Shown here one piece after another: positions 24,801 to 27,800 of a stretch of DNA of 34,543 nucleotides. This DNA comes from Candidatus Woesearchaeota archaeon (GTDB lineage: Archaea > Nanobdellota > Nanobdellia > Pacearchaeales > GW2011-AR1). The stretch lies in contig CAYVCF010000002.1 in the NCBI GenBank assembly GCA_964450135.1, forward strand, positions 1-34,543, given 5' to 3'. The position numbers and the translations under genes were made by a program. A model generated the notes under the pieces. The model worked only from the letters and a program-made list of their open reading frames with translations. It was not told where the DNA came from and did no database searches. How positions within the stretch are numbered: position 1 is the stretch's first letter; the number at the start of each line of letters is the position of its first letter.

Positions 24801-27800
24801 GAGTTGCTCGGAGCAGGAATTACTATTGATGAAGTTCTCCAAAATTATTTTCCATCTCTCACAAAAAATGCTATTCTCTCTGTTTTGACATATGCTTCTA
24901 AACTCGTCGGAGAAGAAAAGCATGCTCTTCTCCAAGAATAAACTAAAATTTCTTTCTGATGAAAATTTTCCAAAAGCAGTTAGGGATTTACTAATGCAAG
25001 AAGGACATGATGTAAAAGAAGTTCCATCAAATTCTACAGACAAACAAGTATCTAAAATTGCTAAATCAGAATCAAGAGTTTTATTAACATTTGACAAACA
25101 TTTTCTTAACAAAAGATTGTTCCCTCCAGAAGAACATTTTGGAATTGTGGTGTTTAAAATTTCCCCCCCATTAATTGAAACAACATTTTCATTATTATCT
25201 AAACTGCTTGAAAAAGTAAATTCATCTGAATTCAAAGGAAGATTATTTGTTATATCTTTATTTAGATTTATTTCATATCCAGAAAATTTGTTTAAACCCA
25301 AAGAATAGACCTTATGTTTTTCAGAAACCAACAAATCACTTCCATCTTCTAAAATTATTTTATACATTTCTTTGTTGTAATCAAATTCTTGCTTTTCTTT
25401 TGGAATTTGAAATTCAATTTCCCCAGTTTTTTGATTTAATGTCGCAACTTCCTCTTTCCCATTTAAGTCAGAAAAATATTTCCAAGAATAATTGTAACAA
25501 GTTTTAGAATTTTTAATTTTGTCGTCGGAAAAATTAATCACGCCGGGAGTGGGAATCGAACCCACAAACCCCGAAGGGCACTTTGTATCAGAAAGTTGCA
25601 ATAACCATTCTGCCACCCCGACGCAATCATTTGAATTAACCGAAATATTTAAATACTTCTCTTCTTTGCGATTATCATAACTTTGTATCAGCAAGTTGGG
25701 TTCAACCATTCTGTTCGAACCCTTTTTATTTTTTTCATTTAAACTATTTTCTAAATTCTCGTCGGTGTTTTCAGAAAAATTTGCGAGTTCGCGTGCAAGC
25801 GCGCTTTTATAAGCGCCGAAGGCGCCAAATTTATTTCCCAAATTATTTTCAAATTCGTCGTCGTCAAATTCTTTTTCCAAATTCTCCTCATTAAAATTTT
25901 CCCAACAATTTATTTCTTCTCTAACTAAAATCTTTGTCTCATTATCATAACAATAACTTGAATTATCATAAACATCTCCAGAAGAATTCATTTCGTCAAA
26001 TTTCCACCAGCCAACTAAAGACCCATTAAAATCAATAAATGCAGAATGTTCGTTTGTGTCTGTTGTTGAAACATTTACATAAATAGAATTTGAATTTAAG
26101 TAAGAACCATTTTCAAAAGTTGGCGAGACAAGAGAAATATTTGAAAAAATTGTATCAACAATTTGTGTTCTCAAAGGAGTTGTGTTTTTATTATTTGCAA
26201 CATCTGTAATTGTGACGTTGTAATGATAAGTTGTGTCGGAAAGTGCGGTGAAATTAATTGAAAGATTTGAAATGGTGTCTGATAAAGTGTAAGTTGTTGA
26301 ATTTACCAAAGTGAAAGTATTTGTAGTATTATACAAATTAAAACTTATATTCGCAGGATTTAATTCTGTTACAGAAACATTTACAAAAACAGAATTTGAA
26401 TTTAATCCAGTGTTGTTTTCTAAAGTTGGGGGGGCATAAGAAATGGTGGGAAAAATTGTATCTGTTGTTGTCGCGCTTGAACTTGAAATTCCGCCAATTA
26501 TATAAGGAGTGTAAAAATTATTTGCGTCGCTTAAGAATTTGAACTCAGGCAAGACATTTGTCGTCGCTGTTGGAATCGCAACTTGCATTCCTATTGTGTA
26601 ATTTCTAAATTCAGGTATTGTAAATTTCGCGCGTCCTTTAACATAAAGTTCTTTAATTTCTGCTTCTGATAAACTTCTATTGAATATCATAACTTCGTCT
26701 ATGGAGCCGTTGAAAAAATTTATATTATTTTGTCGCTTTCCAAAAAATTGAAAAGAATAAGGAATTGAAACATTATAAGAATTATTTCCGCAAAGAACAG
26801 AATTTAAATAAATTTTCATTCCTTCTGAACCATTCATAGTAGCAGTAACTAAATGATACTCTCCTGTTGTTATAGAACGACTGCAAGTAGCTTCATTTGC
26901 AATAGTTCCGGTGTGTCTTGTATAAACAAGTTTTCCATTTGCATCAATATCAATTGTATTACCTTGCCAAGAATCTGCATCTACAAGTGTCATCAGGGTA
27001 TTATTTTTATTTGCATTAAACCATACTGAAATGGTATTATTATTTCTTGTATCACTTAACACATTATTTAATTGAACATAATCCCCGTTCCCATCAAAGC
27101 TCACAGCGTCGTCAAAAACTCCGCTGGTTAAATTTGGTCCTGCTCCAGTCATTGTTAAAGTTCCGTTGTTAGAATTTCCTGACCACACTCCGCAATTTCC
27201 GTTTTCTGATTCATATTCAAAAATTTCTCCTGAAACATTTAGAGAACAAAAATTGTTTTTATCGTCGGTGTTTTGAGAATTTAAAATTGTAGTGGCGCCG
27301 TAGCCGAGAATCGAACTCGGATGTCTGGATAGACCCCGCTCATCAGGCGAGTGCATTACCATTGATGCTACTACGGCATCCACTACAAAATTATTATTTT
27401 CAGAAAAGTTTATATAGCTATTGTCATTCAAATTATTAAAGTCTGGATAGACAAAATGCCTTACCATTGATGCTACATTATCAATAGCATCTTTATCTTT
27501 TTCATTTTCCAAATTTTCGTCGCCAAAATTTTCTTCTAAATTATTTTTCTCCCTTCTCACAAGAATAATATCATTTTCAACATCAACGTCGTAAATTTTT
27601 CCAGAATAATTTTCTTTTGAAATTGATTTTACTTTTACAAGTTTATTTTCTGAATCCATAAAATAAATTTCTTCTCCATCTAAATAATTTTCATAAACTT
27701 CTGTGATTGGTTGAAGAGAGAAATTAATTACGCCGGGAGTGGGAATCGAACCCACAAACCCCGAAGGGCACTTGGTATCAACAAGTTGCAATAACCATTC

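Follow-up and report, generated by a model that had tools for sequence, protein, structure and literature searches.

The 34,543-nt window analysed here (the whole of positions 1 to 34,543, forward strand, of contig CAYVCF010000002.1 of a Candidatus Woesearchaeota archaeon, assembly GCA_964450135.1) has a G+C content of 31.6% and carries on its minus strand a giant gene with four related, intein-like sequences, I1 to I4. The block A loops of two of these, I3 and I4, differ by exactly one unit: the loop of I3 has exactly 237 nt (79 codons, with the frame kept) more than that of I4, and this block includes a tRNA-like gene. With a rough probability of 0.6, the 237-nt block is one unit of an array and the filled/empty difference results from gain or loss by recombination between the linkers of such units.

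We infer both this mechanism and its direction. A unit comprises an acidic linker that begins with CCGACGA, an A-rich leader, a core of 182 nt and a trailer with a T-run. Units stand in tandem in the block A loop of I3. The I4 loop is of the same kind but one unit shorter, and its last elements are a linker and a leader with no core behind them. The recombination between linkers could proceed by unequal crossing-over, by slippage or by ectopic copying from another intein loop, and a target duplication made by a transposase would play no part. The core belongs to a widespread family of portable modules of DPANN archaea that is kept open in one frame. This open frame allows the module to sit inside coding DNA, and intein loops would be particularly safe, since splicing takes the additional peptide away together with the intein.

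Filled and Empty Block A Loops

The extra 237 nt were established by loop alignment and direct reading. The loop of I3 consists of the scaffold, a first unit (linker, G+C hairpin, T-run), a second unit (linker, leader, core, T-run) and a last linker with leader, followed by Cys-Tyr. The loop of I4 reads scaffold, linker, G+C hairpin and T-run, then linker and leader, then Cys-Tyr. The parts are as follows:

25766..25863 (-), preceding unit of the I3 loop: CGACGA, linker, G+C-rich double hairpin, T-run; common to I4 (88.7% over 62 nt)
25759..25765 (-), left CCGACGA, coding for (T)DE; first 7 nt of the unit-opening linker
25746..25765 (-), left copy of the 20-nt linker, CCGACGAGAATTTAGAAAAT; matches the linkers CGACGAAAATTTGGAAAAT in the F-G loops of I1 and I2
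25723..25739 (-), A-rich leader ATGAAAAAAATAAAAAG; left module end, conserved in many genomes
25698..25722 (-), hairpin H1 GGGTTCGAACAGAATGGTTGAACCC; its loop is a copy of the D-loop
25680..25698 (-), half copy, upstream, of the anticodon arm of this same unit; 19 nt with 95% identity to 25580-25598
25646..25653 (-), TATA box TTTAAATA; ~27 nt 5' of the start of the tRNA-like gene
25541..25622 (-), tRNA-like gene with long variable arm, triplet GAU and discriminator G (ARAGORN; Rfam tRNA 47.5 bits)
25529..25540 (-), T-run trailer TGATTAATTTTT; right module end, conserved
25522..25528 (-), right CCGACGA, coding for (S)DD; start of the following linker (no core after it)
25509..25528 (-), right copy of the 20-nt linker, CCGACGACAAAATTAAAAAT; next come TCTAAAACT and TGTTAC (the loop-closing Cys-Tyr)
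23028..23047 (-), single linker and leader in I4 CCGACGACAAAAATAAAAAG, coding for SDDKNKK with TGTTAT directly after; the 'empty' state

The host gene and its inteins lie at:

12843-34181 (-), open reading frame (ORF) of 7112 aa
33887-32916 (-), intein I1 within the 7112-aa ORF
28223-27174 (-), intein I2 within the 7112-aa ORF
25952-24150 (-), intein I3 within the 7112-aa ORF
23255-21942 (-), intein I4 within the 7112-aa ORF

A preliminary description of this DNA had proposed that I3 and I4 represent a filled and an empty site, and alignment and direct reading bear this out. The heptamer CCGACGA stands at 25765-25759 and at 25528-25522 in I3, and in I4 there is one copy (23047-23041), of which the left flank AATTTTTCTGAA and the right flank CAAAA.TAAAAA...TGTTAYAATTATTCTTGG match the outer flanks in I3. 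The presence of an exact 7-mer at both ends of the insertion/deletion is beyond chance expectation. A repeat search further showed that the flanking repeat is longer than 7 nt, extending over 20 nt with 75% identity at the same 237-nt spacing. I4, called the sister intein in the preliminary description, is not the closest relative of I3: identity in the splicing core is 90-92.5% for I2/I3 and ~74% for I3/I4.

The G+C-rich double hairpin that precedes the block (25829-25782 in I3; 23110-23060 in I4) itself looks like an array unit, with a linker 5' and a T-run 3'; its predicted folding is no better than that of shuffled sequences (z = 0.22).

The CGACGA Motif at Unit Boundaries

The best reading of CGACGA is that it is the start of an acidic coded linker (D-E/D-D) of ~20 nt and not the footprint of a transposon. 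Within the giant ORF, the inteins (5.1 kb) contain 12 copies of the motif and the exteins (16.2 kb) 7, a 5.4-fold enrichment in the inteins. The intein copies are always framed as xxC GAC GAx, which gives Asp-Asp or Asp-Glu codons, and 11 of the 12 are located at unit edges. CGACGA is present on both sides of the G+C hairpin unit and the block A unit of I3 and of the F-G units of I2 and I3, and also before a decayed F-G unit of I1 and after the hairpin unit of I4. The pairs which bracket the F-G cassettes at 27522/27267 (I2) and 24465/24243 (I3), already pointed out in the preliminary description, are real. The further units concerned are:

24238..24470 (-), type-1 unit of the I3 F-G loop, delimited by GGCGACGACGA and CCGACGA
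27262..27524 (-), type-2 unit of the I2 F-G loop, delimited by GGCGACGA and CCGACGA
27721..27922 (-), mid-site unit of I2 (type 1), the closest relative of the I3 block A unit (94.5%); CGACGA is lacking on both sides

Measured from the left CGACGA, the conserved end of the module is situated 25 nt further in. The 25 nt after this motif in I3 (GAATTTAGAAAATAGTTTA) match those found before the F-G units of I1 and I2 (AAATTTGGAAAATGAG; peptide DENLEN), and genome G139 has a related D-x-E-N-I linker between its units. The right-hand linker copy opens with SDDK(I/N)K, and I4 reads SDDKNKK followed by CY. The sequence DDKNKKCY also ends the loop in genome G179, where synonymous codon differences indicate that it is kept as protein. 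By eye, the DNA that codes for SDDKNKK in I4 resembles the linker and leader before the core in the F-G loop of I3 (GACGACGAAAATAAAAATAAAGAG). This pattern of a fixed frame, a position at unit edges and 25 shared nucleotides argues that the two CCGACGA copies are the starts of successive linkers of an array. The flanks in other genomes rule CGACGA out as a universal cassette end: alignment of the boundaries places it at unit edges in this gene, but it is absent from the two mid-site units (I1, I2) and from the cassette flanks of other genomes, where different junctions are found.

Probable Gain and Loss of Units

Related inteins show that the content of a slot can change. Genome G536 has one gene with three sister inteins (L121, L122 and L123) that share the block A scaffold (150 nt, 100% between two of them) and have three different unit types in the same slot. 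The leader is similar in all three (AATGAAAAARAAAAG), and the left edge of the slot is a sharp identity breakpoint after GATAAAAATTAT. After the unit, identity resumes at the trailer motif TTGAAAATTCTC in two of the inteins, and the third reads TTTAAAAAATTC. A second case is the pair L076 and L099, which are orthologous inteins from sister samples with near-identical flanks, L076 having one extra type-2 unit. This one-unit difference rests on manual alignment of the repeated peptide NY(G/D)xDKDExYNE, MAFFT and pairwise alignments being ambiguous in the low-complexity part; the manual alignment places TAATGAA at both ends of the extra unit, and the leader is repeated before the third unit of the loop. 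Loss also happens, since in the loops of L042 and L045 the TATA box is directly followed by the loop end, with no tRNA-like gene.

For I3 and I4 themselves, gain in I3 appears somewhat more probable than loss in I4. The identity between the I3 block A unit and the I2 mid-site unit (94.5%; 97.3% outside the two anticodon-arm copies) exceeds that of the I2 and I3 splicing cores (90-92.5%), and by far the 74% between the cores of I3 and I4. This makes recent copying into I3, or conversion of a unit already present there, the likelier event. Two observations oppose this direction: block A loops with tRNA-like genes are widespread, and a linker and leader without a core, as present in I4, fits loss.

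Possible Insertion Footprints and Alternative Explanations

Flank duplication was tested in 25 cassettes by comparing the 80 nt upstream of the hairpin with the 100 nt downstream of the tRNA-like gene, using mismatched flank pairs as the null. No general duplication was found in these cassettes, the median longest shared word being 8 nt, which equals the null median. There are individual exceptions. At L089, the flanks share an 18-nt duplication AAAATGCCAAAAAATAAA that is a copy of the start of the downstream gene (P ~0.002); at L080, an 11-nt duplication ATAAAATGAAA corresponds to the junction of the uL18 stop and the start of the next gene; and L076 has an 11-nt shared flank word. Some insertions thus did duplicate flanking sequence. 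The duplications at L089, L080 and L076 differ in length and in distance from the core, and none involves CGACGA. No terminal inverted repeats were found beyond a 9-nt A-tract/T-tract pair (25529-25537 with 25725-25733, 89%, low complexity).

Several points weigh against recombination between linkers. The flanking duplications of L089 (18 nt) and L080 (11 nt) resemble the footprints of insertion, at least for some free-standing copies. Site-specific recombination, with the exact 7-mer as its core, could likewise explain why nearly all unit boundaries carry this motif. Finally, no recombination event was directly observed, and two assemblies of the population are identical in cassette content.

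Of the alternatives, insertion of a small mobile element at CCGACGA in an empty, I4-like loop, with duplication of the target, survives best, although we consider it unlikely. It accounts for the exact 7-mer at both ends and its single copy in I4, and it agrees with the conserved module ends at many unrelated loci, with the duplications at L089 and L080 (relatives of the latter have the undisturbed junction TAAAATG), and with TAATGAA in L076 as compared to L099. Yet the flanks of the 25 cassettes stay at the null level, and the duplications that do occur vary from 7 to 18 nt and in their distance from the core. CGACGA flanks neither the cassettes in other genomes nor the mid-site units of this one, the only terminal inverted repeats are the A-tract/T-tract pair, and the left CGACGA stands 25 nt outside the conserved end, these 25 nt being linker that is common to other loops. 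Of the mobile element with target duplication suggested in the preliminary description, the discrete and portable unit therefore stands, being found in loops, in intergenic DNA and in Kae1 and differing between the alleles L076 and L099, whereas a target duplication of CGACGA finds no support in the flank test, the other genomes and the mid sites. Repeat-mediated deletion, which had been offered as the other option, may be one direction of the same process of gain and loss.

Less probable still is an integron-like system, in which CCGACGA would be the core of a site-specific recombination site and a dedicated recombinase would insert and excise whole units. The motif is specific to this genome, with other junctions elsewhere, and consists of Asp-Asp/Asp-Glu codons of a linker that is conserved as protein; moreover, each unit has its own promoter, unlike integron cassettes. 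A Pfam scan of the inteins and a few intein-internal ORFs, which was not a systematic search, gave no recombinase match. These observations stand against the occurrence of the 7-mer at the boundaries of units with differing cores (type 1, type 2 and G+C hairpin), with 11 of the 12 intein copies at unit edges, and against the sister inteins of G536, which have different units in one slot with sharp breakpoints.

A chance match of repeats, or an artefact of assembly or alignment of the repeated inteins, is very improbable: CGACGA is frequent in the inteins and the A/T-rich, low-complexity flanks permit a second alignment with the break at AAAAATAAAAAG, but the spacing is exactly 237 nt with the frame preserved, the repeat extends to 20 nt, the same boundary motif is found at four other units, and an independent assembly has the same gapless protein.

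A Portable Module in DPANN Archaea

The proposed gain and loss of units by recombination between linkers concerns the array; the core is found far beyond it. Using a pattern built from the variable and T arms, which detects only type-1 units with one exact arm sequence, we scanned GTDB genomes and JGI/ENA metagenomes, the metagenome contigs being short. The scan recovered about 25 distinct whole-module copies, as well as genuine tRNA-Ser(GCU) and tRNA-Leu genes. The core, from hairpin to discriminator, comprises the hairpin, the half copy of the anticodon arm, the TATA box and the tRNA-like gene with its long variable arm; it measures 182 nt in 18 of 25 distinct cores and 173-191 nt in the others. 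In 26 copies the module ends with a 17-nt leader, about ATGAAAAAAATAAAAAG, on one side and a T-run trailer of ~13 nt on the other. The module is a discrete and portable entity.

Core, leader and trailer recur at three loop positions in the giant gene. Relatives have units in the block A loop (three in tandem in G139; also G536/L073, L076 and L099), in one F-G loop (L095) and at one mid site (L077), and other types of tRNA-like genes, with triplets GAU, GAA and CAA, occupy the same loop elsewhere (L040, L043, L044). Outside inteins, the module is in frame within a 795-aa protein (L078) and within Kae1/TsaD. In the latter case (L087:3303-4550 (+)) a type-1 unit interrupts a full-length protein with no intein (PF00814 whole-profile match, E 4.6e-78). 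The window's own genome provides the empty site: its Kae1 (C46:33-845) is without these 77 aa, which would fall between KQLID and DLSYSLQE, and has 74-81% identity on either side.

Free-standing intergenic modules were found at a dozen loci. One of these (L080:5760-6040) is directly 3' of a uL18 gene (PF17144, E 1.6e-21), with ATAAAATGAAA on both flanks. Several relatives have the stop codon of uL18 directly joined to the following start (TAAAATG); operon order and the N-terminal sequence suggest that the following gene is uS5. Free-standing units of three different populations (L069, L089 and L098) lie at apparently the same place, 3' of a gene read as gyrB (not confirmed by Pfam) and 5' of a small zinc-ribbon-like gene (weak, sub-threshold Pfam match) that starts with M(P/G)K..L(S/A)TPDWI. 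Such a shared position would point to vertical descent for this copy at least.

Within the window's genome, short-word BLAST located type-1, type-2 and G+C-hairpin units only inside the giant gene. A 92-nt 'tRNA-Asn' on contig C47 was considered as a solo cassette and turned out to be an ordinary intron-bearing tRNA. The solo cassettes envisaged in the preliminary description are thus absent from this genome by that search and present between genes in other genomes. A restriction of cassettes to inteins with no polymorphism, also raised there, does not agree with the copies outside inteins and the one-unit difference between L076 and L099.

Of 25 cores, 22 have the same single frame open, the remaining two frames mostly containing 1-11 stops, and free-standing copies lie in ORFs of 80-96 codons. 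The combination of a selected RNA structure (see below) with one open frame is as expected for an element that often resides in coding DNA. No description of intein-borne tRNA-like genes or of the module was found in the literature (one library searched).

The tRNA-like Gene and its Mirrored Anticodon Arm

Consensus folding of 26 copies with RNAalifold recovered the cloverleaf, and 14 of its 29 pairs have changes on both sides, indicating that the RNA structure is under selection. When a single sequence is folded, the D arm of the cloverleaf is missing (z = -2.27). The variable and T arms suggest an ancestry in class II (Ser/Leu-type) tRNA. The long variable arm and G73 are combined with triplets GAU, GUC, GAA or GAC, which is not consistent with the identity elements of the body. 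Each unit has a TATA box ~27 nt before the tRNA-like gene, and transcription of the gene would be driven by this box. A 25-mer around the TATA box (GAGAAGTATTTAAATATTTCGG region) is identical to an intergenic site of the same genome (contig C4:3339-3363), in keeping with a strong native promoter consensus.

The upstream half copy matches the anticodon loop and the 3' stem strand of the same unit, with 88% identity within units as compared to 60% between units (permutation P < 1e-4), and the triplet changes jointly in both copies (GAU, GUC, GAA, GAC). The I3 block A and I2 mid-site units are 97.3% identical outside the two anticodon-arm copies as against 94.5% overall, and in our own reading of the alignment most differences between L076 and L099 also appear to be in the anticodon-arm copies and the spacer. 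This suggests either concerted change or targeted diversification of the anticodon-arm pair. We further considered that the half copy could be an att-type partial tRNA left by an integrated element, or part of a bulge-helix-bulge (BHB) intron or split tRNA. Inspection spoke against both readings: the hairpin stands in place of the acceptor and D stems, and an acceptor helix is not regained in any spliced product.

A more far-reaching proposal would be that these are expressed tRNA-like RNAs with genes built for coding DNA, that intein loops serve as platforms for exchangeable cassettes, that the mirrored anticodon arm is a deliberately diversified specificity element, and that units are moved or rewritten by a dedicated site-specific or RNA-templated mechanism rather than by passive recombination. 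We regard this combination as improbable.

In type-2 and type-3 tRNA-like genes (33425-33650 and 27270-27500 in the window; L040 and L043 elsewhere) the leader and trailer extend the acceptor stem by 7 bp, for example GTAGTGG..CCACTAC, which hints at a distinct precursor structure. The type-2 genes encode CCA.

Host Gene and Genome Setting

All four inteins start with CYDN(E/K)TKIL and end with VWSGN, which is followed by S. Their matches to the Pfam Intein_splicing profile are sub-threshold (E 3e-6 to 5e-3). On the coding strand of the inteins there are five tRNA-like sequences (ARAGORN; Rfam tRNA 47-53 bits), and the giant ORF runs uninterrupted through all of them. An independent assembly from ENA contains this 7112-aa protein as well (identity 7109/7112, 0 gaps), so the cassette arrangement is not a misassembly induced by repeats. 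The genome assembly totals 829,591 bases (82 contigs; completeness 90.8%), and intron-bearing tRNAs are numerous. As a canonical tRNA-Ile(GAU) is encoded elsewhere (contig C64:3-78), the GAU copies in the inteins are extra. The relatives are metagenome-assembled genomes labelled Woesearchaeota, Pacearchaeota or Nanoarchaeota.

A pair of cysteines brackets each expandable loop in the intein family, with EE(V/I)xC...KCY around the block A loop and FCSLN...NCGVW around the F-G loop. The pairs may clamp the base of the loop, which would explain the tolerance of large inserts. Plus-strand ORFs in I4 (22156-22839) and I3 (24672-25308), matching PIN_2 (E 1.8e-20) and DUF5615 (E 5.6e-16), are toxin-antitoxin-like genes and lie antisense to the open intein frame. 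In L045 (genome G348), the protein at ~395-510 has block F, a loop and then a second N-domain (KCYKKTWKLF), with no recognisable block G or A between them; it may be a nested or fused intein.

Comparison with Known Systems

The closest described analogue of the module is the family of Rickettsia palindromic elements (RPEs), repeats of ~150 bp that are found in frame in protein-coding genes (PMC10969869). Like these, the module is short and repeated, has one conserved open frame and no gene for its own mobility, and occurs in frame in unrelated proteins (Kae1, large surface proteins, intein loops) as well as between genes. Unlike RPEs, it carries a promoter-equipped tRNA-like gene under selection at the RNA level, has an archaeal host, and forms linker-joined tandem arrays inside inteins. 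Its structure is a hairpin followed by a cloverleaf and not one overall palindrome.

With transposable elements of the IS/MITE type, the module shares ends that are constant across intein, intergenic and in-protein sites. It is small, has no coding capacity for mobility and is dispersed in many copies across genomes. It differs in having neither clear terminal inverted repeats nor a target duplication of fixed length. Integron arrays are similar in that interchangeable units occupy a fixed slot and vary in number between alleles, and in this gene a short motif lies at nearly all unit boundaries. Integron cassettes are, however, promoterless and depend on the promoter of the platform, whereas the units described here have their own; the boundary motif is coding sequence that varies between genomes, and the platform is an intein loop within an ORF.

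Eukaryotic short interspersed nuclear elements (SINEs) derived from tRNA are likewise short, promoter-bearing and dispersed, and variable short duplications flank the module at a few sites. The promoter of the module is external (the TATA box) whereas that of SINEs is internal, and the module has an A-rich tract 5' and a T-run 3', as opposed to the A-rich 3' tail of SINEs. Since the hairpin and the TATA box are upstream of the presumed transcript, a simple RNA copy would omit both. Inteins with a nested homing endonuclease also have a second element in a permissive part of the intein that is removed from the host protein by splicing. Here the lodger is an RNA gene module that is translated only as a passenger peptide; it is found in three loops and not just at the canonical endonuclease site, and it has no evident role in homing.

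Finally, class II tRNAs (tRNA-Ser and tRNA-Leu) have in common with the tRNA-like gene the cloverleaf and the long variable arm, and the variable and T arms match those of real tRNA-Ser(GCU) and tRNA-Leu genes. The discriminator G is as in tRNA-Ser. In contrast, none of the triplets GAU, GUC, GAA, GAC and CAA is a Ser or Leu triplet of that type, and the anticodon arm is hypervariable and mirrored in the upstream half copy.

Biological Implications

In-frame selfish repeats are known mainly from Rickettsia, and the module is an archaeal counterpart with a structured RNA gene that brings along a promoter. Its sites include inteins, the universal enzyme Kae1 and the vicinity of a ribosomal-protein gene (after uL18). 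For annotation, the units are a source of spurious 'tRNA-Ile' and 'tRNA-Asp' calls and of unexplained insertions in proteins. The pairs of filled and empty sites provide material to study the gain and loss of units. The combination of a Ser/Leu-type body with non-cognate, variable triplets and a mirrored half copy poses a testable question on non-canonical tRNA function. Streamlined genomes of ~0.8 Mb can thus host mobile DNA at places where the encoded peptide is spliced out or tolerated.

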